Below are positions 1,067 to 48,897 of a DNA stretch of 49,812 nt, piece by piece. Under the pieces are notes generated by a model, which saw only the letters and a program-made list of their open reading frames with translations, had not been told where the DNA came from and did not search any database. The DNA is from a virus (Duplodnaviria > Caudoviricetes), in the IMG/VR virus record IMGVR_UViG_3300018476_000001, positions 1 through 49,812 of that record; one strand, given 5' to 3'. Both the position numbers and the translations under genes were made by a program. Each line of letters starts with the position of its first letter. Positions within the stretch are counted from its first letter, which is position 1.

Positions 1067-1149
1067 GCGATAGTCCGACACTCACCCGGAGGGCGGAGAC
1101 CGGAACGGGCTCCGTTCATGAGTGGCGGCGGTGCCGAAGGCAATCGCCC
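1067..1149 (+). repeat. Structured element E1 (orientation B)
   Basis: CACTCA/TGAGTG stem; cggagAccg-gaa-cggGctccg; ends tgccgaaggcaatcgccc. Confidence 0.85.
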
Positions 1150-1168
1150 AACCTGTGCATTTCCTGCA

Positions 1169-1354: not shown

Positions 1355-1817
1355 GGCTGATCCCCGATGAAGGTTGGGCGTCCCGGCCTTCGGCCGTCGG
1401 GCTCTGCTCGCTTCGCTCATCGAGCCCCGCTTCGCGTGTCTCGCCCGCTGTCGCGGCGACGATCCCTGACGCGGCGCGGGCGTGGACCTCGCGCAGATCT
1501 GACTCTGCTGCCTCACGCCAGCCATCGCCGTGACGGAACCAATGTCCGAGGAACCGGTGAAGAAAGAACGCCTGCTCGTCCTCCGCCCGCTTCGGAATGT
1601 CGAAGCCTGCGGCCCGATAGACCCGCGAGAACCGAATGAACGTGAAGCACTGCCGGCCGAGGATGTCGGCCAACTCAGGCGTCAATTCATCGGGCCACGC
1701 CGCGTTAGGGACTAGCGGCTCTGCCTGAGACTGCGCAGCAGGCTCAGCCCCGAAGGGGCGCAGGCCCGGCGACGGCGAAGCCGACGCAACGCCCAATTCT
1801 CCTTTGTCCACAGACAT
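1335..1817 (-). CDS. Hypothetical protein; core paralogous to 9920..10372; both termini encoded by elements
   Basis: GGAGG RBS before ATG 1817; shared core AAWPDELTPxLADILGRQCFTF...FFLHRFLGHWFRHG. Confidence 0.8.
   Translation of the reverse strand: MSVDKGELGVASASPSPGLRPFGAEPAAQSQAEPLVPNAAWPDELTPELADILGRQCFTFIRFSRVYRAAGFDIPKRAEDEQAFFLHRFLGHWFRHGDGWREAAESDLREVHARAASGIVAATAGETREAGLDERSEQSPTAEGRDAQPSSGISHDTKKG
1376..1473 (+). repeat. Structured element E2 (orientation A)
   Basis: gggcg...gggct...cgagcc...gtctcg...gatccctgacgcg. Confidence 0.9.
1701..1794 (+). repeat. Structured element E3 (B)
   Basis: cgcgttaggga...tgagActgc-gca-gcagGctca...ccccgaagggg...cgccc. Confidence 0.9.
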
Positions 1818-3662: not shown

Positions 3663-3738
3663 CGCCCCGATTGAAGCGGGAACCGGCGAGACGCGTAGCG
3701 GCTCGATCCGCGAAGCGGACGAAAGCGGGATAAGCGCC
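3663..3738 (+). repeat. Structured element E4 (B, lacks outer hairpin)
   Basis: gattgaagcg...cgagAcgc-gta-gcgGctcg-atccgcgaagcggacgaaagc. Confidence 0.85.
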
Positions 3739-3749
3739 TGAAAACACAG

Positions 3750-4664
3750 TCATTCCAGCCCCCCGGAAGGCTTGGTAACGGCGGCGAGGGCTTTGCCGAT
3801 ACGGCGCAGGTCGCCGACCGAATAGGCTGCGGCGGACTCTGTGTCCGTCTCAAGACAGTGGATCGTCGGGATCAGGGCATCAGGAACGCTTTCGGCGTAG
3901 AGACTCGCCTCGCGCGCGAACGGCTCCAGTACCTCTATCGATACGAGAACATGGTCGGGGGGTGACCCTGCTCCTTCGGCATAATCGACACAGTCTTTGC
4001 ATGACGGGTCGAACGCTCCGCTTCGATGCTCAGCGGCCGTCGGGCGAGTTTTGAGGAAGCCAGGGTCTTTCTGCCACGCCGCCGCGCAGTCCGCACAGGC
4101 TGGCATGATGTCGCTCTCATCGCTCACCGTCCCGACAGCCTCAGCCGTGCAAAACGAGCATCGTCCGTCCTCCGTCAGTCCATCAGGGGGTGAAGCGGCG
4201 AGGGCGGCGTAGAGGCGTCCCGCGATAGCCGATGCCCAGTGGCCCGGCGAGAAGGATAGGCGGCGACGGCCTAGCTGCTTGATGTCGAGCGGATGGCAGT
4301 TAGTGTCATCGCAGATTTCGTCCCACGTCGCCTGCATCGTTTCATCGACCAGTGTTTGAAGACGACGTTCGTCCAGCGCTTCTCTAAGTCCCCCATCTGT
4401 GGAGGAGATGGAGGCGAGGACGGCGCTGGCCTTGCTGCGGAAGCCGTCGGCGGCGTCACCACATTTCGCGACGATCTCCTGCCAAGAGAGGTCGGGCCAC
4501 GTCGCCTTAGCGAGCGCAATGGCCCCAAGCTCTACCACCTCCTTGTCCGGTAGAGGTGCGATGGCTACAGGAGTTGGGCGATGCCCTTCGGGCCGCTCTG
4601 CCGGGCTCCGCCCCGAGCCCGTTCCGGTCTCGGCCTGACGGCGGCTGCCGCTATCGCGGGTCAC
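3750..4664 (-). CDS. Mosaic hypothetical protein with CxxC motifs; N-terminus encoded by E5
   Basis: GTG start overlapping the upstream stop; CSFC, CADC, CKDC. Confidence 0.7.
   Translation of the reverse strand: MTRDSGSRRQAETGTGSGRSPAERPEGHRPTPVAIAPLPDKEVVELGAIALAKATWPDLSWQEIVAKCGDAADGFRSKASAVLASISSTDGGLREALDERRLQTLVDETMQATWDEICDDTNCHPLDIKQLGRRRLSFSPGHWASAIAGRLYAALAASPPDGLTEDGRCSFCTAEAVGTVSDESDIMPACADCAAAWQKDPGFLKTRPTAAEHRSGAFDPSCKDCVDYAEGAGSPPDHVLVSIEVLEPFAREASLYAESVPDALIPTIHCLETDTESAAAYSVGDLRRIGKALAAVTKPSGGLE
4576..4658 (+). repeat. Structured element E5 (A)
   Basis: gggcgatgcccttcgggc...ccgagcccgttccggtctcgg...ctatcgcg. Confidence 0.88.
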
Positions 4665-4867: not shown

Positions 4868-5331
4868 GCTGCCTCCTTCGTCCGATAACGGTTCTGATAT
4901 TCGGCAAGGCTGGGATCGGGGTCCGTCAGCTTGATCCCGTTCTCGACGCACTCGCGCTGCACCGCGTCGAGAAAGCGGACCATCTGCCGCACCCTCATTT
5001 CGCTCGTGACGGGGATGAACCGCATGGCCTCGACCTTGAGCTGGTACGGCAGCGGCTTGAGCGCCTTGTCGTAGAGCTCGCGGAACTCAGGGCTGTCCTC
5101 GCGCAGGATCGGCACGCCATGACGCAGCTTCCACTCACGCTGCAGCTCGTCGGGAGTCCGGTCCTGAAGCTGGAGAGCGGCTTCCGACGCCCACAGCCAC
5201 ATCAGGCTGTTCTGCTGGCCAGTCCTGTCCCGGCCGTCGATTGACGACACGGTGATCGGGAGCTTTCGCGACAGGAGGAACTTGATCCACAGATCGAGGT
5301 CTTCCGCGTTGGCGAGGATGCGTTCAGCCAT
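4864..5331 (-). CDS. NinB-like recombination protein
   Basis: RTGQQNSLMWLW motif and C-terminal TSEM...M.RFLD.V...GIKL resemble NinB. Confidence 0.7.
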   Translation of the reverse strand: MAERILANAEDLDLWIKFLLSRKLPITVSSIDGRDRTGQQNSLMWLWASEAALQLQDRTPDELQREWKLRHGVPILREDSPEFRELYDKALKPLPYQLKVEAMRFIPVTSEMRVRQMVRFLDAVQRECVENGIKLTDPDPSLAEYQNRYRTKEAA

Positions 5332-5590
5332 TTCTCACCTCGAAATTATGCCGGTTGAGCATGGCCAGATGGACCGTGTTGTGCCCCGTCTTTTCCTCGA
5401 ATTGCCGATCCCCGCCGAGGCTGTGCAGGAGCCGGTGACAGGCGTTGCACAGCTTCACGACCAGCCAATCGTCCTTGGTGATCCGCTGCCAGTTCACGTG
5501 GATAATGTGATGGATGCACTCCGCCGCGGCGCCGCATGGGCACCCGTCGGGCAGCCAGTCCCAATATCTCTGGACGGCAGCGGTCGCCAT
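5324..5590 (-). CDS. HNH-like zinc-binding nuclease (DUF968/Ref-like)
   Basis: CPCG...IHHI...LC..CH motif. Confidence 0.6.
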   Translation of the reverse strand: MATAAVQRYWDWLPDGCPCGAAAECIHHIIHVNWQRITKDDWLVVKLCNACHRLLHSLGGDRQFEEKTGHNTVHLAMLNRHNFEVRNG

Positions 5591-5799
5591 CAGGCAGCCC
5601 TCTCCGCTGCCCGCCTCGCCCGCGCTTTCGCAAGCTGGTTGGCGTTGAAGCACGTCCGGCACGTCCGCGTCCCGCAGTGCGTGATCATGGTGTTCTCGCG
5701 CGTGTAGGGGTGGCCCTTGCGGCAGTGAGTCACGGCTCCCCGCCAGCCCGCGCCCTTGCGGAGCTCGGGGTTCTGGAGAAGGGTGTCGACGGTGATCAT
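5590..5799 (-). CDS. Small Zn-binding protein
   Basis: THCRKGHPYTRENT...CRTC motif. Confidence 0.6.
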   Translation of the reverse strand: MITVDTLLQNPELRKGAGWRGAVTHCRKGHPYTRENTMITHCGTRTCRTCFNANQLAKARARRAAERAA

Positions 5800-6740
5800 G
5801 CCGTCACATTGTCCATGGCCGCGATTCCGCTTTCGTGGAGATCGTAGGCGAGTTGGAATGTGCGGCTCTCGGCGCCGTCGAGCGCTTCGATCGCGTCGGC
5901 GTTGGCGATGCTCCAGTTTTCGAGCATCTTCTTGGTGTCGCACTCCTTCATGCTGGCGATAAGCGGCTTGACCTCGCTGTCGTCGGCCAGCGGAGCAAGC
6001 TCCGCCTCGCGGCGAGCGATCCACGGGCCGAAGCCTTCGAAGTCCTCGCCGTCTCCGGTCCACCATCCGTGATTGGCGTCGCGGATCGTCTTGAGGTCGG
6101 CGCGGTTGTCGCGCTTGAGGTTCTTGAAGCCCTCCAACGTTATGTCGGAGGCGTCGCCGGCCGTCATCATCGCCCGCAGCCGCTCCTTGATCTTGGTGAT
6201 GCCCGGAACCGCGACGGCCTCGATGACCTCGCCGGTTTCGGGATCGTGGCGCGTGCCGTCGAAGCCCTCGACGGGAACTTCCTCGGCCGGCGTCGTCGCC
6301 AGCCCGGCGTTCATCATCACGACGACATGGGCGAAGGCCGACCGGCAGGCCCGCGAGATCGCCCGCGTCTGCGCCATGGCACGAATCGCGTAGTCGGCGC
6401 GCTTCGGAAGATCCTTGCCGCGCACCTTGCCGCCGTACCATGTCGGCTCATCCTCGCCGACGAAGCCCTCCCCGGTTGCTATGATCGTGCCGGTAAGCAT
6501 GTCCCTCACCTCGCCGACGGCCCTCACGCCCCCTTCGACGCGCTCGACGCCGGTAGCGCCCGCCGCGCACCCGTGCGCTCGAGCAATGGCCATCCAGCCT
6601 TCTACCGAGACGTAGCGCTTGCCCTGGATGTTGCTGGACGACGCAAGGACGATTTCCCTGCAAAGCTGCGCCGCGTTGGTGGAGGCGCGGTAGGCTTCCA
6701 CGTTCTCGGCATTGTTGGTGATCGGGACGACGGCGTTCAT
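5796..6740 (-). CDS. Putative ssDNA-annealing/recombination protein
   Basis: Start MNAVVPIT; IQGKRYVSVEGW, AMAQTRAISRA, TPAEE motifs; HDPETGEV linker; upstream of NinB. Confidence 0.5.
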   Translation of the reverse strand: MNAVVPITNNAENVEAYRASTNAAQLCREIVLASSSNIQGKRYVSVEGWMAIARAHGCAAGATGVERVEGGVRAVGEVRDMLTGTIIATGEGFVGEDEPTWYGGKVRGKDLPKRADYAIRAMAQTRAISRACRSAFAHVVVMMNAGLATTPAEEVPVEGFDGTRHDPETGEVIEAVAVPGITKIKERLRAMMTAGDASDITLEGFKNLKRDNRADLKTIRDANHGWWTGDGEDFEGFGPWIARREAELAPLADDSEVKPLIASMKECDTKKMLENWSIANADAIEALDGAESRTFQLAYDLHESGIAAMDNVTA

Positions 6741-6907: not shown

Positions 6908-6973
6908 TCGACCTCTCCCGCAATGGTGTGGTCGGGGGTGATTTGAGTTTGGATGGTCATGGCGTTGAACCTT

Positions 6974-7062
6974 GGGCGTCTCCCCCTTCGAGGGCCGGGC
7001 TCTCGCCTACGGCCGAGCCGCTGCGCGTCTCGTCGGCTGTCGCCGCTTCGATCCCTGACGCG
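6974..7062 (+). repeat. Structured element E6 (A)
   Basis: gggcg...ccgggct...cgagccgctgcgcgtctcg...gcttcgatccctgacgcg; inner end 1 nt from the stop at 7064. Confidence 0.92.
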
Positions 7063-7063
7063 A

Positions 7064-8248
7064 TCACAGCGCGATTCCGGCGGCTTTTTCAGATTGCAAA
7101 AGCAGCTCGTCGAAAAGCCAGGTCTGAAGCTGGCGCGTCATGTCGCTGTAGCCGGTCTTCAGGTGGACGAACTCTTCGAGCAGCGTGCTCGCAACCTCTT
7201 TGGTGCCTTTCTGGAAGGCGGCTTTGGCGATGAAAATGCGATCCTCTTTCGCGAGCCCGTAAACCCCTTCGCCAAGGTCTTCGACAATGGTGATGGGGTA
7301 GCGGTCCAAGTCGTAGCCGGCGGAGCGTAGGAAGCACTGAGCGCGATCAAAACGCTCCCGTTCGATGGGATGAAGATCAACGCTTTCGCTCGGGCCGAGA
7401 TCGGAAAGCGACATCATCCTAGCAAGCGCCATAGCTGACGGGTTAGCCTTGCCGATGTTGTCGAGGCGCCCACGCAATCCGGCAGCCACCCTCAAGAATG
7501 TGGGAGATGGTGAGTTGTGTTCGCGGAACGAGAGATGATGCTCTAGATACTGATCACCACAGGACAGAGCGCCGAGAACCAAATCCTCGCGGTCGCACTT
7601 GGCGAGGCCGAGCGTGATATGGGACTCAGCCTCCCAATCATATTTGATTGTGCGGTCTTCGGTGAGATCGATCTTCCGCAAGATGTTATAGGTATGGCTC
7701 GTCGGTCGACAGAGCGCGCCGACGCGCACATTCCTGTAATAAACGTGCCGTGACATTCCCGGCCGTATTTCGATAAAGTCGTTAGCATAGGCGGGCGCGC
7801 CTTCGAGGACGATCTCGCCGCGCGCATAATAGGCATCCTCAATCTCTTCCGACGCGACGGCAATGACGGTTTCGCTGTCTCCGATCTCGCCGATGTCTGG
7901 CCCGGAAGCGTAGTATCGGCCGCCTTCGTCCAAGGCGTTGCAGGCCAGTTCGCGGAAGGCCATCCAAGGCTTCCAGTCGCGGCCGAGAGAGGTGGTGAAG
8001 CCAAGTTCCTCGCCGTCGAAGGTGACGACGCTGAACGGCTTCCCGCGCACGTCCTTATCGATGGTGCCAAGGCGATGCTCGTCCTTGCCGCGATAGATCG
8101 TCACGGACCCGCCGCCTCGCAGGATGGTGGCGATGGCGAACTTTACCCCGGTGCCGAAGTAGCCAATCGCGCCCTCTTCCTTAACGGAGACGCCGAGAGT
8201 GCGCACCGCCGTCAAGTCAATGAGGCCGCCGTTTCGAAAAACGATCAT
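7064..8248 (-). CDS. GHKL (HATPase_c)-like ATPase with C-terminal zincin-like motif
   Basis: IGYFGTGVK (G2 box), RELACNALDEG (N box), TLLEEFVH. Confidence 0.65.
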   Translation of the reverse strand: MIVFRNGGLIDLTAVRTLGVSVKEEGAIGYFGTGVKFAIATILRGGGSVTIYRGKDEHRLGTIDKDVRGKPFSVVTFDGEELGFTTSLGRDWKPWMAFRELACNALDEGGRYYASGPDIGEIGDSETVIAVASEEIEDAYYARGEIVLEGAPAYANDFIEIRPGMSRHVYYRNVRVGALCRPTSHTYNILRKIDLTEDRTIKYDWEAESHITLGLAKCDREDLVLGALSCGDQYLEHHLSFREHNSPSPTFLRVAAGLRGRLDNIGKANPSAMALARMMSLSDLGPSESVDLHPIERERFDRAQCFLRSAGYDLDRYPITIVEDLGEGVYGLAKEDRIFIAKAAFQKGTKEVASTLLEEFVHLKTGYSDMTRQLQTWLFDELLLQSEKAAGIAL

Positions 8249-8260
8249 CGTACTGCTCCA

Positions 8261-8356
8261 GCGCCAGTGGATTGAAGCCCGTGAGGGTGGAGACGCGCAG
8301 CGGCTCCATCGCGAAGCGACGAAAGCCCGGTCGGCGCCGTAGGCGACGAGGCGCCC
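8261..8356 (+). repeat. Structured element E7 (B)
   Basis: ggattgaagc...tggagAcgc-gca-gcgGctcca...gaaagcccgg...cgccc. Confidence 0.92.
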
Positions 8357-8389
8357 AACCTTGCCATCACTTAGTGTATCCCAGGTAGG

Positions 8390-8647
8390 TCATTGGGGGT
8401 TCCGATCCGAGGTTTCGGGCGATGCGCTCGCTTCGCTCCCGCCGCTCTGGCTTGCTCCGCACTCAGCCTCGCTGCGCGAGTCTTCGCCCTTCGGGAGCCT
8501 GCTGCTATCGCGAAGGCACGACCACAGGAGCCCGAGCGCGCCCAGAATAAGCAACGCCGCAGCTAGGTGCTCCCCGTCAAACAGGCTGGTCACGCCCAGC
8601 GCCGCGCTCACTCCAGAGCCGAACAAGTTCCAGTCGCGAAGGCTCAT
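8390..8647 (-). CDS. Small membrane protein; C-terminus encoded by E8
   Basis: Hydrophobic segments; AAGGAG RBS. Confidence 0.7.
   Translation of the reverse strand: MSLRDWNLFGSGVSAALGVTSLFDGEHLAAALLILGALGLLWSCLRDSSRLPKGEDSRSEAECGASQSGGSEASASPETSDRNPQ
8417..8512 (+). repeat. Structured element E8 (A)
   Basis: gggcgatgc...cagcctcgctgcgcgagtcttc...cccttcggg...ctatcgcg. Confidence 0.85.
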
Positions 8648-8659: not shown

Positions 8660-9148
8660 TTATGTGCGGGCGGGTAGCGGGTCTGGTTCGGGCGCGATGA
8701 CGACGCCCCCGGCGCCAATCTCTGTCGCGCCCGCGCTCCCGCCCGCGTTCGGTTTCAGCTTCACTCGCCCGACTTCCTGAAGGACGATGAAGGTGGACTC
8801 GGGGAAGGCGACCAACAGGCGCGCTGCCTCTGCCTCGGCCGCTTCGCGCGTCTTGTGGCGGAAGCTCGGCATCCGCTTACCGCCAGCTTTCTTGCTGAGC
8901 CCTCCCCTGCCGTGTGGCAGGCGCCGGTAGAGAAGGAACGAGCCGTCTTCCCACACCTTCGCCTCGGGAGCGTAGCGGTCGCGTTCGCGAAGAATGGCGT
9001 AGCGGGCGAACCGGAGGGCCACCAAGGTCTCTTCGCTGGAGAGACCGGCCGCAGCGCCCTGCAAGAGGTCGTCAAGTACCCTTAGCGCGCCGTTGTGGGC
9101 CGATCCGGGGTGGCCAACGGGGGCGATAGTGTCGAGGGCGTCAGGCAT
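8660..9148 (-). CDS. Hypothetical phage protein
   Basis: 162-aa ORF; HKTREAAEAEAARL...F.VL motif. Confidence 0.75.
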   Translation of the reverse strand: MPDALDTIAPVGHPGSAHNGALRVLDDLLQGAAAGLSSEETLVALRFARYAILRERDRYAPEAKVWEDGSFLLYRRLPHGRGGLSKKAGGKRMPSFRHKTREAAEAEAARLLVAFPESTFIVLQEVGRVKLKPNAGGSAGATEIGAGGVVIAPEPDPLPART

Positions 9149-9151
9149 CGT

Positions 9152-9325
9152 TCAAGCTCCTGCGAAGGCCGCGCACGCGGCGAAGAGGAAGAGGAAGAGC
9201 GCGGCGACCGCGTAGGGCTCCGCGATAGTTGACAGTCGGCCGAAGGCTGGAGACCGCTTGCGGGCTCCACTCGCGACTGGCGACGGTGCCGAAGGCAATC
9301 GCCCAAAAGGAAGCTCAGCCATCAT
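9152..9325 (-). CDS. Small membrane protein (57 aa); N-terminus encoded by E9
   Basis: MMAELPFGRLPSAP...TIAEPYAVAALFLFLFAACAAFAGA. Confidence 0.55.
   Translation of the reverse strand: MMAELPFGRLPSAPSPVASGARKRSPAFGRLSTIAEPYAVAALFLFLFAACAAFAGA
9221..9304 (+). repeat. Structured element E9 (B)
   Basis: cgcgatag; CAGTCG/CGACTG stem; tggagAccgc-tt-gcggGctcca; tgccgaaggcaatcgccc. Confidence 0.9.
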
Positions 9326-9923: not shown

Positions 9924-10372
9924 GGGTTTGATCCGGTTGGGTTTTCAGGGCTGGGCGCATCGGCGTTGCCGACCGCGCTCTCGTCTTCGACGGCACCCGT
10001 TCCGGTTGCCGCCCTGCGGGCTTCGATCGCTTGCGCGGCGCGAGTGTGCACCTCCCGCAAATCCGCCTCGGCGGCTGCTAGCCAGCCGCCACCGTGGCGG
10101 AACCAATGCCCGAGGAAGCGGTGAAGAAAGAACGCCTGCTCGGCTTCCGCCCTAGTCGGGATGTCGAACCCTGCGGCCCGGTAGACCTGCGCGAACTTGA
10201 TGAACGTGAAGCACTGGCGACCGAGAATGTCGGCCAGATCAGGCGTCAATTCGTCGGGCCACGCCGCGTTAGGGATGCCACTCTGCGAAGACCCGCCGCT
10301 TGGCGGGGCTGAGGCCGAAGGCTGGCAGCCCGACGGCGCGTCAGCGCCGGAACGCCCAACATCGCGGCTCAT
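9920..10372 (-). CDS. Hypothetical protein; core paralogous to 1335..1817, N-terminus near-identical to 48408..48860
   Basis: Direct sequence comparison. Confidence 0.85.
   Translation of the reverse strand: MSRDVGRSGADAPSGCQPSASAPPSGGSSQSGIPNAAWPDELTPDLADILGRQCFTFIKFAQVYRAAGFDIPTRAEAEQAFFLHRFLGHWFRHGGGWLAAAEADLREVHTRAAQAIEARRAATGTGAVEDESAVGNADAPSPENPTGSNP
9953..10037 (+). repeat. Structured element E10 (A)
   Basis: Central hairpin with compensatory changes (reverse strand cggcaAccg-gaa-cggGtgccg); ends gcttcgatcgcttgcgcg. Confidence 0.88.
10265..10357 (+). repeat. Structured element E11 (B), near-identical to E17
   Basis: cgcgttagggatgccactctgcgaagac...ggaacgccc. Confidence 0.92.
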
Positions 10373-10557
10373 ACCAACCCACCTTCACGAGCAAGACGGG
10401 AGGCGAGTTCACGCCTGACATCTTCGCCGCACGCGCAGTCGCAGATCGAGTAACTGGTCGAGACATTTTCGCCGGTCCAAATGCCGCCGTGCGATGTCTC
10501 CGCGTATCCGCTGTCGCCACAGCGTGGGCACGTTTCGTCTGCGATAGAGGGGGTCAT
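10369..10557 (-). CDS. Small Zn-finger protein
   Basis: CPRCGDSG...CDCACG. Confidence 0.65.
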   Translation of the reverse strand: MTPSIADETCPRCGDSGYAETSHGGIWTGENVSTSYSICDCACGEDVRRELASRLAREGGLV

Positions 10558-11042
10558 GCCGACACCCCGCGGGCCTTGGCGAGTGCGGCTAGCGCGCTTT
10601 CCCACGCATCTATGCAGCCGCTGTCGCCTGCGAAGTGATCGAACGCCGCCTCCATCGTTTTTGCTCGCGAGAGCGGCTTTTCGATTGCGGCCCCGTAGGC
10701 AATGAACATTTCGGCCAGATCGGCCACCGCCTCTGCGAGTTCAGGTGCGGCGGCGATAAGGTGAGCGTTGGCTTCGGCCGTCGGATCGTCTTCGTCGTCG
10801 AATAGGACCTCGGCAATGAACGTGTCGGGTGCGAACACGCCTCGCGACAGACAGCCGCCCATCGGCTCAAGAGTCTCCCCGAGTTTCCACGGCCCCTTCG
10901 TCCACCTTGCGCCAGTCGATGCCGACCCGGAGGGCGGAGACGCGTCAGCGGCTCCGTGCATCGCATCGGCAGCGCGGTCGTCGGCGTCAGCCGACGAGGC
11001 GCCCAACTCTTCCTCGAAATCTCCGTAACCTTCTGACATCAC
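10554..11042 (-). CDS. Phage hypothetical protein (TxGPW...ANAxLIAAAP family); N-terminus encoded by E12
   Basis: WTKGPW and EANAHLIAAAPEL motifs. Confidence 0.75.
   Translation of the reverse strand: MMSEGYGDFEEELGASSADADDRAADAMHGAADASPPSGSASTGARWTKGPWKLGETLEPMGGCLSRGVFAPDTFIAEVLFDDEDDPTAEANAHLIAAAPELAEAVADLAEMFIAYGAAIEKPLSRAKTMEAAFDHFAGDSGCIDAWESALAALAKARGVSA
10909..11004 (+). repeat. Structured element E12 (B)
   Basis: TGCCGA/TCGGCA stem closing three hairpins; cggagAcgc-gtca-gcgGctccg. Confidence 0.9.
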
Positions 11043-11443: not shown

Positions 11444-11683
11444 CTAGGCGAGCCCGAGGGCGGCTTTGTAGGTTTCGAGGAGCGCTTCGCTTTCCTGCCG
11501 ATCATGAGTTTCCATGCGGCGGAGGCGGACGATGGCGCGGATGGTGGGCGCGTCGTAGCCGCGAGCTTTCGCCTCGCCATACACGTCCTTGATATCGTCG
11601 GAGATCGCCTTCTTCTCCTCCTCAAGGCGCTCGATGCGCTCGATGAGGAGGCGGAGTTCGTCGGCGGCTACGGTGTCGGTCAT
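11444..11683 (-). CDS. gapR: GapR / DUF2312 nucleoid-associated protein homolog
   Basis: ADELRLLIERIERLEEEKKAISDDIKDVYGEAKARGYD...LLETYKAALG. Confidence 0.92.
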   Translation of the reverse strand: MTDTVAADELRLLIERIERLEEEKKAISDDIKDVYGEAKARGYDAPTIRAIVRLRRMETHDRQESEALLETYKAALGLA

Positions 11684-12412: not shown

Positions 12413-12558
12413 TGGCCACCCTCTCTCGCCAGCCGACGGAAATCGAAATCCGTCATTGGCTGATCCTCACCCGCTGCCGCATCTCCATGGCACACACGCC
12501 GCTCGATCCGACGCGGCTGATGAAGGCGCACAACGACAACCGAGGCGACGTCGCATGA
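12412..12558 (+). CDS. Small hypothetical protein
   Basis: Overlap-coupled between cro and the methylase. Confidence 0.5.
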   Translation: MATLSRQPTEIEIRHWLILTRCRISMAHTPLDPTRLMKAHNDNRGDVA

Positions 12559-13214
12559 CCGGCATGGGCCTCACCCTTCCCCCCGGTCCCTTCGGCTGCA
12601 TCCTCGCGGACCCGCCCTGGCGCTTCGCCACGTTCAGCGCGAAGGGGCGCGGACGCTGTCCGGACGGCCCGATCTCGCCGACGGCCACCCGCAACCTGCA
12701 GCGACAGAACCGCCCGGAGCGGCACTATCCGACGATGACCTTGGCCGAAATTCAGGCGCTTCCCGTTGCACGGCTCGCCGCCAAGGACTGCGTCCTCCTG
12801 ATGTGGGCAACGGACCCGCTGTTGCCGCAAGCCCTGCAGGTCGGTGCCGCCTGGGGCTTCACGTACAAGACGACCGGCTTCATCTGGGCAAAGGAGCGCC
12901 GCGTCACCAGCCGCCGGGGCGACGCCTTCTCCGATCCCGACGAGAAGCGCTTCCCGATGGGCACCGGCTACTGGACGCGCTCGAATCCCGAGCTGTGCCT
13001 GTTGTTCACCCGCGGCGCCCCAAGGCGCCTCTCCGCTGCAGTCCGCAAGCTTCTGATCGCCCCTCGCCGCGAGCACAGTCGGAAGCCCGACGAACAGTAC
13101 GAGCGGATCGAGGCGCTTGTCGGCGGACCCTATCTCGAGCTTTTCGCCCGCGCTCCTCGTGAAGGCTGGGCCGCATGGGGCAATGAGACCTCCAAATTCG
13201 CGGAGGCCGCATAG
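12555..13214 (+). CDS. MT-A70 family N6-adenine DNA methyltransferase
   Basis: ILADPPW, HYPTM, GTGYWTRSNPE, HSRKP, YLELFAR, WGNE. Confidence 0.92.
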   Translation: MTGMGLTLPPGPFGCILADPPWRFATFSAKGRGRCPDGPISPTATRNLQRQNRPERHYPTMTLAEIQALPVARLAAKDCVLLMWATDPLLPQALQVGAAWGFTYKTTGFIWAKERRVTSRRGDAFSDPDEKRFPMGTGYWTRSNPELCLLFTRGAPRRLSAAVRKLLIAPRREHSRKPDEQYERIEALVGGPYLELFARAPREGWAAWGNETSKFAEAA

Positions 13215-13553: not shown

Positions 13554-14228
13554 ATGGAGGCTGGGCGCATCCCCTTCGGGGACCGGGCTGGCGGTCCTGC
13601 GGACCCGAGCCGCCAAGGCGTCTCGGCCGAAGGCGCTCATCCCTTGCGCGACGATAGCCGGTGGTCGCTTGACGAGGCAGTCGCCCTCTGCCGCGAGATA
13701 GAGGCCATCTGCCCTGGCTACGGCTGCCACGTCGCGCTGACCGGCGGCACGCTCTACAAGGACGGGCGCCGCAAGGATTGCGACCTTCTCTTCTACCGCA
13801 TCCGCCAGTCGCCGCAGATCGACGAGGATGGCCTGTTTGCCGCGCTGGCGTTGATCGGCGTCACCAAGACGGGTGGCTACGGCTGGTGCCACAAAGCCGA
13901 GTATCGCGGGAAGGCTATCGACTGCTTTTTCCCGGAAGAGGACGGCGAGTATCCGACTGAGGAAGAGGTCGATTTCACGCCGGAAGATGTCGCGTGGGCG
14001 CTCAGCGATAGTGCGATTGAAGCGCGAAGCGGCGAGACGCTTGCGGCTCGATCCGAAGGACGAAAGCGCCGGTTCCGCGAAGCGGAAATCGCCCAGAATA
14101 TCCCGGATCAACTCCCCGATTCGAACGAACCGACACCGTCGCTCTACACCCAGGGATGCAACTGCAATCCGGTGCCGGTCCTCGATTCCTCCCTTCATGA
14201 AGCCGCACATCGCATCGAAAGGCGCTAA
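13554..14228 (+). CDS. Putative minimal nucleotidyltransferase-fold protein flanked by E13/E14-encoded peptides
   Basis: ALTGGTLYKDGRRKDCDLL fits hG[GS]x9-13DxD. Confidence 0.55.
   Translation: MEAGRIPFGDRAGGPADPSRQGVSAEGAHPLRDDSRWSLDEAVALCREIEAICPGYGCHVALTGGTLYKDGRRKDCDLLFYRIRQSPQIDEDGLFAALALIGVTKTGGYGWCHKAEYRGKAIDCFFPEEDGEYPTEEEVDFTPEDVAWALSDSAIEARSGETLAARSEGRKRRFREAEIAQNIPDQLPDSNEPTPSLYTQGCNCNPVPVLDSSLHEAAHRIERR
13563..13650 (+). repeat. Structured element E13 (A)
   Basis: gggcgcatccccttcgggga...ccgagccgccaaggcgtctcgg...atcccttgcgcg. Confidence 0.9.
14006..14094 (+). repeat. Structured element E14 (B)
   Basis: gcgattgaagcgcgaagcg-gcgagAcgc-tt-gcgGctcg-atccgaaggacgaaagc...aatcgccc. Confidence 0.9.
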
Positions 14229-15324: not shown

Positions 15325-15747
15325 ATGACTAGGCTCCACGAGACTGTCGGCCTCGAGCGCTACAAAGCCGCGATGCTGGCGACGGCACAGGTTCTACGCG
15401 CACCTAAGGCAGCGCCGACCCCAAAGCTCAGCTTCCCCGAACGTACGCGCCTGCCGACACGGCGCATCATGATAGCCGACATCCAGGCCGAGGTCGCGCG
15501 CCACTATCAGATCCCAGAAAGCGAGATGCGATCGCCCAGCCATGTTCGCAAGGTCGCCTGGCCGCGGCAGGTCGCGATCTACCTGTCCCGACAGTTGACC
15601 GGCCGCAGCCGCACCGAGATCGGCAACTGCTTCGGCGGCCGCGACAGCTCGACCATATACACATCGTGCCGGGCAGTAGAGGCGCGTCGAGACGCCGATC
15701 CCCGCCTCGATCGCGTGATCCGCATGCTGGCCTCGAGACTGGCATGA
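15325..15747 (+). CDS. DnaA C-terminal (domain IV) HTH protein
   Basis: IQAEVARHY...PRQVAIYLSRQLT..S..EIG..FGGRDSSTI. Confidence 0.88.
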   Translation: MTRLHETVGLERYKAAMLATAQVLRAPKAAPTPKLSFPERTRLPTRRIMIADIQAEVARHYQIPESEMRSPSHVRKVAWPRQVAIYLSRQLTGRSRTEIGNCFGGRDSSTIYTSCRAVEARRDADPRLDRVIRMLASRLA

Positions 15748-16091
15748 ACGCCCGCGTCAGCAAGAAGGGCTGCTACGTCAAAGGGCGGCGCTTCGAATAC
15801 GAAGTGCGCGACGACTTCGTTGCGTCCGGGCTGCCTTGTCGCCGCGTCCTCCAGTCCGGCTCCGGAATCGAGAAGGGTGATCTCGTCCTCACCTGCCGTT
15901 TTGGCGAGCAGAGGGGTGAGGCCAAGCGCCGCCGGACTCTTCCCGCCTACCTGACGGAAGCGCTTAACCAAGGCCACGACTTCGCTGTCTTCCGAGAGGA
16001 CCGCGGGCAAACCTTCGTCCTCATCACGCTCGATCGCTTCAAGCAGCTCGTGTCCCGTCCCTCCATGTCGAAGGAGGGGGTATGCGGATAG
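15744..16091 (+). CDS. Hjc-like PD-(D/E)xK Holliday junction resolvase
   Basis: KGRRFEYEV...RRVLQSGS...GDL...EAKRR. Confidence 0.75.
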   Translation: MNARVSKKGCYVKGRRFEYEVRDDFVASGLPCRRVLQSGSGIEKGDLVLTCRFGEQRGEAKRRRTLPAYLTEALNQGHDFAVFREDRGQTFVLITLDRFKQLVSRPSMSKEGVCG

Positions 16092-16462
16092 AGGATGGGC
16101 GCGTGGCTGCGCCACCGGGCTCTCACCCTTCGGGCCACGCCGGCTGCGCCGTCGATGGCGCTTCGCGTTTCGATCCCTCGCGCGTGATTAAGTTGGGACT
16201 GCCGTGGCCGTGGCGCTTCCGCAAGATAGCCATTCGTGGCGACACCTGCTTTTTCTGGGCCTACTCGCGTCGGACCTTCGCCGTTGGGTTCGAAGACCTG
16301 CAGGACGGCTTTATCGTCTTCCTAGGCTGCTTCTGTATCGGCTGGGGCAGCATCTCGGCTGCGATGGACCGTGAGCCGGAATATTACACCCGAGCCGACG
16401 TGGATGCCCTCTACGAGAAACTGAGGGGTGTGAAGTTCTGCGATAGCGATGAAGCGGCATGA
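16082..16462 (+). CDS. Hypothetical protein; N-terminus encoded by E15
   Basis: AAGGAGG RBS; 126 aa. Confidence 0.7.
   Translation: MRIEDGRVAAPPGSHPSGHAGCAVDGASRFDPSRVIKLGLPWPWRFRKIAIRGDTCFFWAYSRRTFAVGFEDLQDGFIVFLGCFCIGWGSISAAMDREPEYYTRADVDALYEKLRGVKFCDSDEAA
16097..16184 (+). repeat. Structured element E15 (A)
   Basis: gggcgcgtggctgcgccaccgggct...tttcgatccctcgcgcg. Confidence 0.88.
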
Positions 16463-34339: not shown

Positions 34340-36504
34340 TGGCGCGCGTCCCCGTCTACCAAGGCGACAACATCGAGCGGACGGGTCTTTCCGGCGCCAG
34401 GCTTCGCCCCGCCGACTTCTCAGCCAATCCTCTCGCCGAGGGCTTGAAACAGGCCGGCAGGGGTCTCGCCGACGTCGCCGACAAAATGGACCAGATCGAG
34501 GACGTCAAGGCCCGGATCGAAGCGAACGACCTCGACCTTGAACATCTGGAAGCCGAACGGCTGATCCGCCAGCGGGTGCGCCAGACGCTGGGGCAGGGAG
34601 CTGAGGCCGCAGCCGACAAGGGCGCGGAGGATCTGGAAAAGTCGTCCAAGGAGATATTGGGCCGTGCCACCCCTCGCGCGCGCCTGTTGCTCGAGCAGTC
34701 GATCCGGCGCCGCAACTCCCAAGCCGCCGACAGCTATCAGGAGCATGGCTTCGGCGAGACGGTGAAGGCTTTCGACACGGGGTCGCGCGCGCGCCTCAAG
34801 CGCCAGAGCGAGGTTTTGGCCGACGAGCCCGACGAGGCCAAGGCCGATCAGATGTTCGCGGAAACCATCCCGGCGATCATCAACGAAAGGGCGGCTTTCT
34901 TCGGTACGCCCAAGGAGGTTGCGGAAGCCGAAGTCGCGGCCGAGCTGTCGAGCTATCGCATCTCGCGGGCCAAGAAGCTCGTCGCGTCCAGCGCCACGGC
35001 CGCGCGCGAATATGTCCTCGCCCATCGCGGCACGATAGACGACGAGGATTATGACCGCTTCCTCAGTGCGTATGAGGACGAGGCGCTGTCCGAATGGGCG
35101 GAGTCGGCTATCAGCGAGGCACCGGCGCCGGCGGTCGCGGACACCCCGCCGGAACGACCCGCCCCGCCTCGCCAGGAAAAGCCGCTCGATTTGACTCGCG
35201 GACACACGGCCCGGTCGGGGATCGGCCGCCGTGCCCCACCCGCGACGGGAGGAGGGCGCAGGGGCTCGTCCAATCACAAGGGCCTCGACCTCGATTATTC
35301 GGCAGGCGCCCCGGTTCCCGCCTCGATGTCCGGAACCGCTCACGTGAAGCGTGATCCGAACGGTTACGGGAATTACGTCGTCATCGACCATGGGGGAGGG
35401 CTGGAAACCCGCTATGCCCACCTCTCCTCTTTCGCCATTCGGGACGGGCAGAAGGTCGGCAAGGGCGACATCGTCGGGGCGGCAGGGAGCACCGGCAACA
35501 GCAGCGGCCCCCATCTCCATTATGAGGCTCGGCAGGACGGCCGGCCGATCGATCCGCGCACCATCGGCGAGCGGACCGTCCATCCTCGGGGGACGGCTCC
35601 CGTCCGGGTCGCCGCGGGAACGAATATCGGCGAGATCATCGACGGCATCAGAGGACGGGAAGACCTCTCCCACAAGCAGAAACAGGCTCTGATCAGCGCC
35701 TATCGGGGACGCTTCAACGAAGCTCAGCAGGCGCGGGCACTGGTCGAGAACGAGGCGCAGCGCGAAGCCGACCGCGTCCTGGTTGGGCTCGGGGACAAGT
35801 TCACCAGCACGTCTCAAATCCCCAATTTCGAGCAGCTCGCACCGAATGACCAGCGAGCTTACGCCTCCATGGCGCGGCAGAACAAGGAAGGTGGCGGGAG
35901 GCTGTCCCCCGAGGCGGCCGCTCTCATCCAATTCACTGAGCTTGCCGACCCTGATCAATTCATCACCCCGGCGTTCCGCGCGAGGCTCGCGTCGATGGGC
36001 GTTCCCGCCGCGGTGATTACGAGCGTCGCTGGACGGGCGGGGCAGATTGCGGGGGCTCGCGCGGCCGCGAAACCGGAGCCGATCAGCGACGGCACGCTCT
36101 GGACCGTAGCGAAGCCTGCCTTCGAGGCTGCGGGGCTCGACTTCGAGAACCTCCAGGCGAAGACGAGAGGGGCCAAGAATGCGGAGCGGGTCGCCGACGC
36201 TCAGCGCAAGCTGCGCGCCATCTCCTATCTTCGCGACGTGGCCGTGAGGTGGGCGAACGCCAATCCGGGCAAGCAGCCCGACGAGGCGACTATGCGCGGA
36301 TGGGTCGGCTCAGCCTTGCGGGGGGTAGGTCCGGCCGGAACCTATGCCTTCGAGGCGGGTGACGCACAGATCGCCGCGAACATGGAGCCGGGGTATCGTG
36401 CGCGCGCCTCGGAAGCGCTTCGAGCGGCCGGTATTCCGGTCAACGCACAGACCCTTGCCAGCTATCACCGCGAAGCCCTGGCGCGCCGCGCAAGGGCGCA
36501 ATAA
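34339..36504 (+). CDS. Ejection protein with M23 peptidase domain
   Basis: HKGLD, GYGNYVVIDH, TRYAHL, GSTGNSSGPHLHYE. Confidence 0.88.
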   Translation: MARVPVYQGDNIERTGLSGARLRPADFSANPLAEGLKQAGRGLADVADKMDQIEDVKARIEANDLDLEHLEAERLIRQRVRQTLGQGAEAAADKGAEDLEKSSKEILGRATPRARLLLEQSIRRRNSQAADSYQEHGFGETVKAFDTGSRARLKRQSEVLADEPDEAKADQMFAETIPAIINERAAFFGTPKEVAEAEVAAELSSYRISRAKKLVASSATAAREYVLAHRGTIDDEDYDRFLSAYEDEALSEWAESAISEAPAPAVADTPPERPAPPRQEKPLDLTRGHTARSGIGRRAPPATGGGRRGSSNHKGLDLDYSAGAPVPASMSGTAHVKRDPNGYGNYVVIDHGGGLETRYAHLSSFAIRDGQKVGKGDIVGAAGSTGNSSGPHLHYEARQDGRPIDPRTIGERTVHPRGTAPVRVAAGTNIGEIIDGIRGREDLSHKQKQALISAYRGRFNEAQQARALVENEAQREADRVLVGLGDKFTSTSQIPNFEQLAPNDQRAYASMARQNKEGGGRLSPEAAALIQFTELADPDQFITPAFRARLASMGVPAAVITSVAGRAGQIAGARAAAKPEPISDGTLWTVAKPAFEAAGLDFENLQAKTRGAKNAERVADAQRKLRAISYLRDVAVRWANANPGKQPDEATMRGWVGSALRGVGPAGTYAFEAGDAQIAANMEPGYRARASEALRAAGIPVNAQTLASYHREALARRARAQ

Positions 36505-39500
36505 TGCCGCCACGCCCGGAAGAGCTGGACATCGCCCGGAGCGTGGCCGCCCAGAGCGCCCACGGATCGATTTACAGCGCCCAGTATGGCGACTCGCAGA
36601 AGGCCGCCAAGGCGAACGAGATGGCCCGCCGGCTCGGCATTCCCGCCGATGTTGTCGAGGCCGATCTGCCCAACATGTCGGCAGAGGATCGGCTGAGGCG
36701 GGCTCGGGAAGCGGCACGGCACAACCCGGTCTATGCCGGGATGATGGCGAACCCGCGTTTCGCTGCCGCGGCGATAGACGACGACAATCTGCGCCCTCTG
36801 GCCCATGCGGTAGCCCAGGTCCGCGAGATGGCGGAGCGGGCGACTCAGGTTCATTCCTGGCCGCGCAGCCGCGACCCCAAGATCAAGGGATGGTCGGCCG
36901 GCCCCGGAGCCGAGAACCTGTCCTATCCCATGCAGATCCTCGCGGCGGCGGACAGGCGTTTCGAGGGCCTCGGGGCCGGGATGGGTCGCTTGCTGGCTGC
37001 CACCACTCCTATTTCTGGAGCTCGGCCCGTCTTTACTCGGATGGCGGCCGAGAGCGAGGAATATGCCCAATGGGCGCCGCAGCGCTCCAGCCTGTCAAGC
37101 TGGCAGGACGTCAAGCGCAAACCCTTGCTCGCGCCCATGTTCGGCGTCGAGCAACTGACCACCTCGTTTCCCGACATGGTCACGCTGATCGCCGCTTTCC
37201 CCGGCTATATCGCGGCGCGTTCTGGCGAAATCGGACAGCAGCGCGCGCGGAACAACGGCAAGACGGATGCGAGTATTGGCGATATCCTGAAGGCTGCTCC
37301 CGCCGCGACTCTCTCCGCCTATCTCGACCGGCTCGGACTCAGGGGGATCGGCGCCGCGATTGCCAACCCGGCGCTTCGGGCAACGGTAACGGCGGCCACG
37401 CGAGAAGCCGGAACGGAGTTCCTCCAGAGCGGCATAGAATATCTCGGCTCGAACCTTGGGACCGATGCGGGCTGGGACGGCCATGAGATGGTCGACCAGA
37501 TGGTGGCAGGCGCCGTGGGGGGATTCTTCGCGGGCGGCATCATCGGCGGCGGTGGTGGGTCGATCAATCACGGGCTGAGCAAGATATATGAAAGCCGGGC
37601 GGCTCAAGACGCCGCCGCGACCGTCGATCACGTCATGGAAGCGGCTTCGAGAGCCGAGACGCGGACCAGCAACCCCGGCGACTTCGAAGAGGTGCTTAAT
37701 CAGCAACTGGAGGGCCGGGCGGGCGAAACCCTTTACATTCCCGGCGAACAGGTGGCCGCCCTGTTTCAGGAAGGCAATATCGCCGAACATGCCTTCTGGG
37801 GGCAACATGCCGCACAGGTGGCCGAGGCCGTTGCTATCGGCGGGGACGTGGTCATTCCGCTTGCGGCAGCAGCGACTCATCTGGCGGGAACTCCCGAATG
37901 GCAGGCCCTGCGCGAGCATGTGCGCGCCACGCCCGGCGGAATGTCGATTGTTGAGGCGAAGCAAAGGCAGACCCCCGAGGAGATCGAGGCGCTGGCGGCT
38001 CAGCTCACGGACGAGATCGAACGGCGCGTGCCAGAGATACAGGCAACCCGCGCGGTCAAGAAGTTCGCGACGGACATGGGCTATGAGGGCGAGCAGGCGG
38101 GGGCGATCACGCAGCTTGTCGCCGCCCGCCTCGCCGTGGCTGCGAAACTGTCGGGTGTGTCGCCGACGGAGATGTGGAAGCGCTGGGGGCTGTTTTCCGA
38201 GAAGACGACTCAGGCGGATTTCGAGGCGCTTGGCAAGACGGGAGCGCTAGCGCAAAGCGCAAATTCCCCGGAGTTTCGTCGCTGGTTTGGCGACTCGCGG
38301 GTTGTCGATGAAACCGGCTCACCGCGAGTGGTCTATCACGGCACTGGCGCGATGTTCGATACCTTTGAAGCGACGGGCGGGACGGTGCTGGAGGGGGTCT
38401 TTTTCTCTTCTGAGCGAGACGGCGCTTTTGATTGGGGGCTTAGGCGTGCTGGCAGCGAGAGCGATGTCAGGGTGGTCCCCGCTTATATCTCACTCAAAAA
38501 CCCTGCGGATCAGGACTCGGTTGACGAGGCCATCGCCGATTATCGGGACGAAAACGGGGAAGAGCCGAGCCCTGCCCAACTTACAGAATACCTACAGGAG
38601 CAAGGCTACGACGGCTTCCTGGATCAAAGCTCGTTCGAAAACGCGTTGGAAATCGTCGCCTTCAATCCCTCACAGATCAAGGCGACCGAGAACCGCGGCA
38701 CCTTCGACCCGAACGATCCCAACATCTACAACCAGCCCACTCGCGGCAACATCAGCCTCCTAAAGGACGAATCCGGCACGATGACCGGCGCCGTCATCCG
38801 CGCCTTCGAAAGCGCCAATTTCTCGACCGCCATTCACGAACTCGGCCACTTCTGGCTTGAAGACTTGAAGGGGCGTGCGGATGCCGACTGGCAGACCATC
38901 CAGCAATGGTTCGCAGAGAATGGCCACGACGCCGGCGAGTCCATTCCCGTCGAAGCGCACGAAATGTGGGCGCGCGGGATGGAGCGCTACATCTTCGAAG
39001 GCAAGGCGCCGTCGAAAAAGCTCAAGCCCCTGTTCGCGAAGATGCGCGACTGGATGATGGACCTCTATCGCAGCGTCACCGCGTTCAACTCCCCCATCTC
39101 TCCCGAGATTCGGGACGTCATGGACCGCATGTTCGCCAGCGATGAAGAGATCGCCATCCAGCGCGAGGAAATGCGCCTCGCCACAGCCAATCTCGAAGGC
39201 CTGATGACCGAAGCCGAGCAGGAAGATTATCTGCGCGTGGCCGATGACGTCCGGAACGACGCGCGGGACAAGCTGATCGAGCGCATCCTCTCGACGCTGC
39301 GCCGGGAGCGGACGGACGAGGCCAACGCGCGCCGCAAGGCGATCCGCACTGAAGTTGAGACTGTGGTGGATGCGGAGCCGGTCTTCCGCGCGCTTCGGAT
39401 GCTCAGGGTCGGCATCGAGCAGGAGGAGGGCGAGGCGACGAAGGTCCGCCTGTCCAGCCAATGGCTGATCGACGCCTATGGCGAGGAAATCCTCCCCCGC

Positions 39501-47882: not shown

Positions 47883-48090
47883 TCATTTCAGGCGAGTCCT
47901 CACCGGGATGGAATAGCGAGTAGGTGCTTAGCCCCGCCTCGATCATCTCCTCAGTGATTTCTCGTTCTAGCGCCGGCCCGTCGCCTTCGCCTATCTGGTT
48001 TTCGTCATGGTACGTCAAGTGGGGTATCCCCCTCGCGATAGTCGATTGAAGCCTTTGGTGGAGACGATTTATCGGCTCCATGCGTAGCAC
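47842..48090 (-). CDS. Hypothetical protein
   Basis: EITEEMIEAG motif; end of the left operon. Confidence 0.55.
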   Translation of the reverse strand: MLRMEPINRLHQRLQSTIARGIPHLTYHDENQIGEGDGPALEREITEEMIEAGLSTYSLFHPGEDSPEMIIRQVYLAMRACA

Positions 48091-48136
48091 GAAAGCGACG
48101 GTTTGCGCAGCAAAATCGCCCTCACTCCGGAGTAGG

Positions 48137-48407: not shown

Positions 48408-48860
48408 CTAGGGGTTGGGCGTCTCGGCGCTTGTCGCGCCGACCTGGCTCTCGTCTACGACCGCGCCACTCTTCGGTGTCGCGGCCCTACGGGCTTCGAT
48501 CCATGACGCAAGATCAGCCGCCCACGCTGCTTCTTGCGCGGTCACCCAAGCCTCGACCGCGTCCCAATCATGGTAGCCGGGCTCTCCATAGCGCTGCCCT
48601 TCGTTCAGAATGTCGTGGAGGGCGCCAGTGAGGTTATCGTGCCATTTGCCGGTCGGGCTCGAGCCCCAGTCAAATGCCGTGGCCTCTTCTGTCCCCCGCT
48701 GAGTGCCAGCGTAATAGATGTCCCGTATCCCGCCGTATGAGAGCGTCAACGCGTTAGGGATGCCACTCTGCGAAGACGCCGGAACGGCGGCTGAGGCCGA
48801 AGGCTGGCAGCCCGATGGCGCGTCAGCGCCGGAACGCCCATTCTCCAGCTCGTCAGCCAT
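48408..48860 (-). CDS. Hypothetical protein; both termini encoded by E17/E16
   Basis: Shares GRSGADAPSGCQPSASA...SSQSGIPNA and IEARRAAT..GAV.DES with 9920..10372 but has an unrelated core. Confidence 0.8.
   Translation of the reverse strand: MADELENGRSGADAPSGCQPSASAAVPASSQSGIPNALTLSYGGIRDIYYAGTQRGTEEATAFDWGSSPTGKWHDNLTGALHDILNEGQRYGEPGYHDWDAVEAWVTAQEAAWAADLASWIEARRAATPKSGAVVDESQVGATSAETPNP
48417..48510 (+). repeat. Structured element E16 (A)
   Basis: gggcgtctcggc...ccgcgccactcttcggtgtcgcgg...gcttcgatccatgacgca. Confidence 0.88.
48750..48839 (+). repeat. Structured element E17 (B)
   Basis: Near-identical to E11. Confidence 0.92.
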
Positions 48861-48897
48861 GTTACTCTCCCTCTCTATTTGAGTGGCCCGAAGGTGT

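Follow-up and report, generated by a model that had tools for sequence, protein, structure and literature searches.

The window analysed here, a stretch of 49,812 nucleotides, spans the whole of a virus record (IMGVR_UViG_3300018476_000001) that is complete at 49.8 kb and has repeats at its termini. It represents a temperate podovirus that carries integrase and GapR genes together with virion genes like those of BPP-1. The GapR gene, a Sphingomonas-named protein among the homologues of the 5796-6740 product and related element copies in Sphingopyxis phage VSN-002 together suggest an alphaproteobacterial host. Nineteen copies of an element of about 90 bases lie in the accessory and early regions of the phage (Table 1), and none of the 18 complete copies falls within the 30 kb from 17000 to 47300. 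E12, whose nearest relative is E18 (78% identity over 97 nt), sits inside a phrog_1273 gene, while the shortened E4 lies directly upstream of a small gene preceding int; short copies of this kind also occur in three other loci (L128, L043 and L044). Other genes of the window encode a phage GapR-like DNA-binding protein (11444-11683, minus strand), an MT-A70 methyltransferase (12456-13214, plus strand) and a polyvalent, injected virion protein of 2013 aa that has LPD22 and ART-PolyVal domains (36504-42545, plus strand).

Table 1. Positions of the elements, of the parts of E12 and of two genes in the window.
Feature	Position	Strand	Basis or remark
E1	1067-1150	+	structure grammar
E2, one end of cassette E2-E3	1375-1472	-	structure grammar
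E3	1702-1795	+	structure grammar
E4, short subtype without hairpin D	3663-3740	+	sequence-only HMM; ends approximate
E5	4575-4657	-	structure grammar
E6, with E7 flanks the lower-GC phrog_8203 gene 7064-8248	6973-7061	-	structure grammar
E7	8261-8357	+	structure grammar
E8	8416-8511	-	structure grammar
E9	9222-9305	+	structure grammar
E10, in cassette E10-E11	9952-10036	-	structure grammar
E11	10266-10358	+	structure grammar
E12, complete element	10909-11005	+	DNA fold and structure grammar
E12 P1 5' strand, GCGCC, partner 10998-11002	10909-10913	+	sequence, covariation
E12 P2 5' strand	10915-10925	+	outer pairs, then A10919 opposite G10972, then TGCCGA pairing with 10966-10971
E12 arm A, CCC-GGA-GGG, GNA triloop	10926-10934	+	DNA fold
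E12 arm B, 5 bp, A10940·G10951 mismatch, tip CGC-GTCA-GCG	10935-10956	+	
E12 arm C, TGC-ATC-GCA	10957-10965	+	DNA fold
E12 hairpin D	10978-10997	+	
E12 unpaired CCA at P1 foot, predicted priming site	11003-11005	+	base conservation
E13	13562-13649	-	structure grammar
E14	14005-14095	+	structure grammar
E15, immediately past the resolvase-like gene	16096-16183	-	structure grammar
E16 (our numbering)	48035-48122	+	structure grammar
E16b (our numbering), with E17 encloses one ORF, 48408-48860	48416-48509	-	structure grammar
E17	48751-48840	+	structure grammar
E18	48897-48987	-	structure grammar
phrog_1273 gene containing E12	10554-11039	-	
Holliday-junction-resolvase-like gene	15744-16091	+	phrog_244, E 1e-8

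A core pattern matched the window seven times, against 0.01 matches expected, and a structure grammar recovered 18 true copies together with one false match at 8667, in a region (8660-8780) that is a GC-rich nested inverted repeat. E4 was added by a sequence-only HMM grown from the window copies. In a 739-kb shuffled control, no grammar match reached a score of 21. Relatives were gathered from three viral scans, one genome scan and named records; the first viral pattern returned 125 loci, mostly by chance, and 9 of 120 loci of the genome scan were true copies, the remainder being chance. The resulting covariation set comprised 186-200 copies across many genomes. Rfam covariance models gave no match at the gathering threshold in the window and a single chance match (E 0.69), outside the elements, in five loci. 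A literature search found no description of the fold, with most older subscription papers out of reach.

Adjacent copies face opposite ways in 122 of 165 cases. Those with their CCA ends outward lie less than 900 bp apart in 55 of 66 cases (a few near-duplicate loci included), compared with 29 of 56 for CCA-inward pairs, and a single ORF is held by 16 of the 36 short CCA-outward pairs versus 7.4% of 6010 control windows. The ORF of such a cassette begins 4-37 nt beyond one end, continues through both elements and terminates inside the opposite end or a little beyond it. E12 lies in frame between the phrog_1273 ATG and the WT(K/P)GPW start motif of the family, with which element-free homologues begin; at the same place in the phrog_1273 gene, another locus (L153) carries a different element. 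Element-free relatives keep their own start and stop at the positions where carriers have elements, and the joints fall 0-12 nt outside CCA and show no duplication. The bodies of E2-E3 and E10-E11 are 83% identical although their elements differ, and E11 and E17 are nearly the same element in unrelated flanks. Inverted pairs bracket exchangeable gene bodies in this phage. The sole DNA run holding the phage, probably its source, contained no independent excision joint, and no RNA run was listed as containing the phage.

Fold and covariation of the element

Folded as DNA, E12 reaches a minimum free energy of -36.8 kcal/mol (z -4.5), which none of 200 shuffles equalled. The minimum-energy structure holds the arms as the sequence-only reading had first drawn them, with TGCCGA/TCGGCA closing around CCC-GGA-GGG, CGGAG..CTCCG and TGC-ATC-GCA; the centroid fold omits both 3-bp arms, and RNA parameters yield another, rod-like interior. 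On the folding strand, called B (its complement being A), the element begins with the terminal stem P1 (GCGNN/N'N'CGC), one A and P2, which meets arms A, B and C at the junction; GG or GA then leads to hairpin D, followed by the returning strand of P1 and CC(A). P2, the closing stem, is interrupted past its outer pairs by an A·G mismatch, and a second A·G mismatch stands five pairs into arm B. Hairpin D is dispensable: in E4 and in the gokushovirus KT264808, three or four A-rich bases take its place.

The closing stems quoted earlier for E1, E9, E11, E12, E17 and E18 match the sequence. Another variant, poorly anchored by the parser, includes E5 and E8; these two were read only by eye. The pairing of GCGAT with ATCGC at the element ends, previously noted for several copies, is real but far more general, as it represents one form of a universal 5-bp stem, GCGNN/N'N'CGC, with eight common variants. 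Likewise, the 4-nt segments TTCA and CTCG of E1 and E9 are present as described, but they are not plain linkers, since each can close one base pair; among 40 such four-base segments, TTCA occurs 29 times, CTTG six times and CTCG twice. In the commonest subtype (58 of 127 parsed copies) P2 is only partly Watson-Crick and consists of two pairs, a tandem G·A/A·G, a bulged A and one pair.

That structure is kept where the letters vary, as had been proposed from the window copies, holds over 186-200 copies from many genomes. With the element ends set from sequence only, the variable positions of P1 are paired in 171 and 176 of 186 copies, against shuffled means of 75 and 83. For P2, anchors were made without use of the inner closing stem; 127 of 186 copies were parsed and 44 failed, 15 mis-anchored ones having been left out beforehand. 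In the Watson-Crick subtype (n = 46), positions 1-5 are paired in 41, 39, 37, 34 and 37 copies (shuffled, 26, 17, 24, 18 and 19), and in the tandem-G·A subtype position 2 is paired in 57 of 58 copies (shuffled, 25) and the junction pair closed in 56 of 58 (shuffled, 41). Against a tree-based null on 160 distinct cores, support was obtained for P2 pair 2 and for the fourth and fifth pairs of arm B (E below 0.025); the outer P2 pair and P1 do not count here, having been forced by the filter. P2 pairs 1, 3 and 4 were not significant in this pooled set (E 1.8, 0.45 and 5.7) because the subtypes differ in register. When 26 hand-picked copies were aligned with MAFFT, the share of paired cells was 87.4%, versus 72.2% after shuffling, and the covariation score was 0.376 versus 0.129, with at most 0.094 for slid controls. 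Part of the pair compensation was spread by module exchange, since two loci (L207 and L242) have flanks 97-99% identical around different interiors. The conserved, covarying fold of the element is real.

The four-way junction drawn in the sequence-only reading also recurs: all four arms can be closed in 175 of 200 parsed copies versus 76.5 with shuffled interiors, as counted by a permissive parser that accepts 1-bp arms. In these copies four helices can meet without unpaired bases, as in a Holliday substrate. Arm C, however, is a single base pair in 79 of the 175 closed junctions, and arm A measures 1-3 bp in 160 of them, shorter than the arms that resolvases are known to grip. The element is a compact branched fold and not a convincing Holliday substrate.

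Carriers and strand placement

The proposal that the element folds as DNA on the B strand is borne out in 18 of 18 copies, in which B is more stable than its complement. GNA triloops, whose extra stability is confined to DNA, occur 459 times on B and 29 times on A.

Carriers beyond this phage include viruses with single-stranded genomes. All five microvirus carriers (L172, L191, L390, L447 and L525; four lineages, 4.2-5.9 kb, element intact) have one intergenic copy on the gene, that is the packaged, strand. Pf-type loci with a marker have one gene-strand copy in 10 of 10 cases, all of one lineage, and single-stranded-phage loci with a marker or annotation place the element on the single-stranded strand in 15 of 15. 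In Pf4-type inoviruses the copy directly precedes the single-strand-binding gene, and in KT264808 it lies between VP1 and VP2, just past the capsid gene, in the same slot as the minus-strand origins of phiX174 and G4. A second structured motif was seen just upstream of the Pf4 element and also in the element-free Pf1, another inovirus and a microvirus (L385:1060-1185, L381:7000-7080, L382:4520-4590 and L383:6270-6330); it is possibly another single-strand signal. In PfAC11, about 170 nt of AT-rich foreign DNA begins exactly past the element CCA (L384:1385-1560).

The leading regions of IncF and IncN plasmids carry the element as well (F, R100 and R46). In seven plasmids (F, R100, p720632_94, pK516_NDM1, R46, pR16.0676_34k and pAER57), 21 of 21 copies lie on the transferred strand as deduced from plasmid layout, which is the template of most leading genes; three copies in two further plasmids could not be assigned to a strand. 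pAER57 has two oppositely oriented regions, and the orientation of the element flips with each. In F, each copy ends an Frpo repeat of about 520 bp, some 120 nt past the published ssiD fragment, and the element is absent from ssiE. The third Frpo-like repeat of R100 ends in a different folded module at the usual place of the element (L393:30022-30097, minus strand), and two candidate windows of PMC11541004 Supplementary file 7 have yet another alternative there. At E 0.01 or better, a microvirus copy matches 782 plasmids, of which 587 are conjugative; an IncF copy with a few flanking bases matches 4331 plasmid records. Tn4371-type ICEs carry copies beside the relaxase in Bradyrhizobium, Sphingorhabdus and a third alphaproteobacterium, and two ICE contexts appear to fit the same strand geometry. 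The Bradyrhizobium and Sphingorhabdus copies (L274:10001-10096 and L284:10001-10096) are identical within ICE regions that are 88% identical, so the element is more conserved than its surroundings there. Six further loci (L410, L431, L470, L430, L432 and L142) are lower-GC, small-contig phages with single copies and variant terminal stems; the host range of the family may extend beyond the Alphaproteobacteria.

The element is absent from Pf1, M13, phiX174, G4, ColE1, one more inovirus and one more microvirus, and it is therefore not essential to these life styles. With respect to genes, B reads as sense in the single-stranded phages and as antisense to most leading genes of the plasmids; in this phage it does either. 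Whichever way the genes run, B is always the strand that goes single-stranded. Such placement and a conserved DNA secondary structure, both found here, characterize single-strand origins.

A dedicated phage enzyme was sought by clustering 4746 ORFs from 38 loci and rejected, as only a DUF968-like HNH protein is widely shared. This very divergent protein, encoded in the window at 5324-5662 (minus strand), occurs in 25 of the 38 loci; with no element-free phage control set, its presence is not evidence of a link to the element. Apart from it, the carriers have no phage enzyme in common, which points to a host reader. Neither Int nor the 5796-6740 protein is common to them, and the annealing-protein slot is filled by differing, partly Erf-type proteins. 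In the window this slot holds the 5796-6740 product (minus strand), which belongs to a large family (phrog_19042, 2889 homologues). It has no match in Pfam or NCBIfam and no confident Atlas family, Rad52/Sak leads scoring under 0.9, and it is probably a single-strand annealing protein.

The resolvase-like gene does adjoin E15, as had been pointed out, but only one of the 19 copies is so placed. Its protein has no Pfam, NCBIfam or PDB match, and among the partial loci examined, homologues occur in three contigs besides the window. An annotated resolvase is missing from two annotated microvirus records and from the Pf stretches examined, where the element is intact, and none of seven scanned ORFs of the microvirus L172 matches one. 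We judge that this gene is not dedicated to the element.

Priming and its alternatives

Immediately past P1, 187 distinct flanks have C (185), C (167) and a purine, A or G (151). On the opposite side, at the two positions where it could pair with this CC, G occurs at -1 in 2 and at -2 in 10 of 187 cases, against a background of 0.30; this avoidance of G leaves the 3' CC unpaired. The intergenic hairpin of M13 has ATCGCCC-T at its 3' foot (5729-5736). The likeness spans seven bases, at the foot of the stem on its 3' side. The family HMM does not match M13, and a search for the M13 primer string did not find it. The M13 primer start, which we take to be T5736, is consistent with the published M13ori description cited next. 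M13ori is described as needing no -10/-35 and as binding in the downstream channel of RNA polymerase, with an 18-nt primer, a mismatch at +5 and pre-melting at +2/+3 that improves escape (PMC3632114, PMC7430646).

By this seven-base analogy at the P1 foot, RNA polymerase becomes the leading candidate for the priming enzyme, and we put the probability that the element is a host-read single-strand origin primed by RNA polymerase at about one half. A host-read priming site of any kind, with primosome and primase counted in, is fairly probable. The strand of the element follows the single-stranded state and not transcription, which favours priming. For this phage we infer priming, the identity of the enzyme and a cassette model as follows. 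Host RNA polymerase would bind the stacked stems, a short primer would start on the unpaired CC at the P1 foot, and DNA polymerase would extend it through the element and on into the sequence 5' of it. If each strand of a gene body carries an element at its 3' end, inward re-priming would be possible on either strand. A new strand beginning at the CCA end would fit the variable joints 0-12 nt outside CCA, and a template switch past the copied element would fix the element to a new gene, as would fit joints at the GCG end; the phage annealing protein might then paste the pieces behind resident start codons. Cassettes would thus move by inward priming and template switching.

A still broader proposal is tentative and rather unlikely as a whole. 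One folded-DNA signal would be the shared priming site of proteobacterial plasmids, ICEs and single-stranded phages, and the inverted pairs of temperate phages would act as natural PCR primers. Each gene body, having an element at both 3' ends, would form a very small linear replicon that primes itself. Host enzymes would copy it, and the copies would be inserted behind start codons already in place, so that genes are captured without a dedicated recombinase.

Several observations weigh against priming. The mapped single-strand initiation signals in the table of PMC11541004 do not contain the element. Conversion to double strand follows entry by minutes (PMC9849209), and priming beside Frpo would shut Frpo off, which is at odds with that timing. 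The pyrimidines at -1/-2 could reflect a joining preference instead, and 19 copies in a double-stranded phage are not explained by priming alone.

An unlikely alternative is an attC-like or Ssn-like site, cut or joined by a single-strand nuclease or recombinase that the host or a mobile element encodes, cassettes moving by cleavage beside the fold. Mosaic breakpoints at both element ends, the divergence of the F Frpo repeats shortly past the CC end and the foreign DNA of PfAC11 right past CCA would suit such a site. The two A·G mismatches would give strand identity, as the extrahelical bases of attC do. Ssn nucleases that cut beside folded repeats exist (PMC11893778). The joints, however, vary over 0-12 nt without target duplication, unlike those of a site-specific recombinase, no conserved enzyme runs through the carriers, and several microviruses have a lone copy without a partner site.

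It is more doubtful that the priming signal is read by the primosome or a primase, as at the phiX174 pas or the G4 origin, and not by RNA polymerase. One gokushovirus has the element in the phiX174 origin slot, and by eye the tandem G·A step of the phiX174 F-G hairpin resembles the commonest P2 subtype. A pas heptamer occurs in 27 of 186 copies and in none of their complements, yet the other 159 lack it. The pas is described as a fork-like hairpin bound by PriA (PMC5778457). Neither HMM nor grammar matches phiX174, G4 or ColE1, and the conserved unpaired bases are CC(A/G), not the CTG found 3' of the G4 hairpin.

Less probable again is a protective or decoy fold, whether a nuclease-resistant cap, a block to complementary-strand synthesis by which the neighbouring single-strand promoter stays active, or a sponge taking up some host protein with affinity for branched DNA. 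GNA mini-hairpins dominate the element, which lies just upstream, in transcription terms, of both F Frpo copies, and an exonuclease stalling at the fold would leave short variable tails like those observed. A block of second-strand synthesis, however, would harm a microvirus, and a passive cap would need neither the invariant unpaired CC nor fixed mismatches.

We consider it improbable that the element acts as RNA, as a single-strand promoter for the adjacent gene, or as a selfish MITE-like insert without function for its carrier. On a crude count, cUUCGg-type loops can be read 72 times on A and GNRA-like loops 100 times on B, and G·T exceeds A·C in B-strand stems by 55 to 10. These counts partly favour RNA. 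The question of DNA versus RNA is decided by the distribution of the element, whose B strand is sense in some carriers and antisense in others. A stem followed by CCA resembles tRNA, but no Rfam model matches and a transcript from CCA would miss the start codon, 4-37 nt outside. The position next to Frpo would suit a promoter. As regards a selfish insert, the flank comparisons shown revealed no flank-joined empty site and no target duplication; in the few close genome pairs compared, neither hallmark of a MITE or IS, target-site duplication or precise empty sites, was found. A transposon with TG..CA ends was rejected for lack of a target duplication.

Least probable of all is the mechanism proposed in the sequence-only reading, a Holliday-junction mimic cut by the phage resolvase and starting recombination at gene boundaries: the closable arms, an interior exchangeable as one piece between flanks that are nearly identical (L207 versus L242) and the gene beside E15 speak for it, but side arms of 1-3 bp with arm C so often a single pair, homologues in few carrier loci and none annotated in the single-stranded phage carriers examined, and conservation that peaks at P1 and CC, away from the junction, all speak against it.

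Comparison with known systems

The element is a well-delimited candidate, 90 bases long, for the signal by which the transferred plasmid strand is converted to double-stranded DNA in the recipient and for the place where minus strands start in many Microviridae and inoviruses. It occurs in Pf4 and in F, R100, R46 and thousands of other plasmids, which makes it directly testable in laboratory E. coli. It would be a natural DNA fold with covariation support of a kind more familiar from RNA, and it suggests how temperate phages of Alphaproteobacteria could come by their sharp mosaicism at gene boundaries.

Like M13ori, the element would act on single-stranded DNA without needing -10/-35; the seven bases recur at the 3' foot of its stem, and it keeps unpaired the +2/+3 positions whose pre-melting helps M13ori to escape (PMC3632114, PMC7430646). 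M13ori is a rod-like hairpin, whereas the element is branched with fixed A·G mismatches and has no HMM match there. Like Frpo/ssiD, ssi1-3 of ColIb-P9 and ssiE of F, it lies on the transferred strand of leading regions and folds as DNA (PMC11541004, PMC12672017, PMC9849209, PMC7690428), and in F it ends the same repeat of about 520 bp. By eye and by its position in F, however, it falls outside all five published fragments (ssiD, ssiE and ColIb Frpo1-3; PMC11541004), lying incidentally inside three 400-nt candidate windows (Frpo* 2, 6 and 7; PMC11541004 Supplementary file 7). It also differs in its length of about 90 nt, in having no -10/-35 hairpin and in being carried by phages too. For Frpo itself, a part in priming in vivo has yet to be demonstrated, according to PMC7690428.

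The phiX174 pas and the G4 origin resemble the element in being intergenic, on the viral strand and built of small purine-loop hairpins (PMC5778457, bioRxiv 10.64898/2026.07.25.740675), and phiX174 also shares the tandem G·A step; they differ in topology, show no sequence or grammar match, and the element has no CTG. The IncN CUP repeats invite comparison, since element copies of R46 stand between the ccg/ard operons and recombination between CUPs reshuffles genes (PMC5371602, PMC3490853). In the description given there, CUPs are ArdK-controlled promoters with consensus blocks and have no such fold. The PeSLs of T4-type phages are likewise repeats that border exchangeable accessory genes (PMC2839356). 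They are described, however, as a promoter plus terminator in direct orientation that recombine by homology, whereas the elements are inverted and read in frame, half-and-half chimeras are rare and P1 is paired in over 90%.

Integron attC sites fold on their bottom strand, with asymmetric unpaired bases and GTTRRRY/RYYYAAC boxes. The element resembles them as a folded strand with asymmetric unpaired bases at cassette borders, but its consensus lacks these boxes, its pairs are inverted, its joints are imprecise and its carriers share no integrase. By the tests run, the element falls outside Frpo/ssiD, pas, the G4 origin, attC and PeSL, and it would work most like a single-strand origin.
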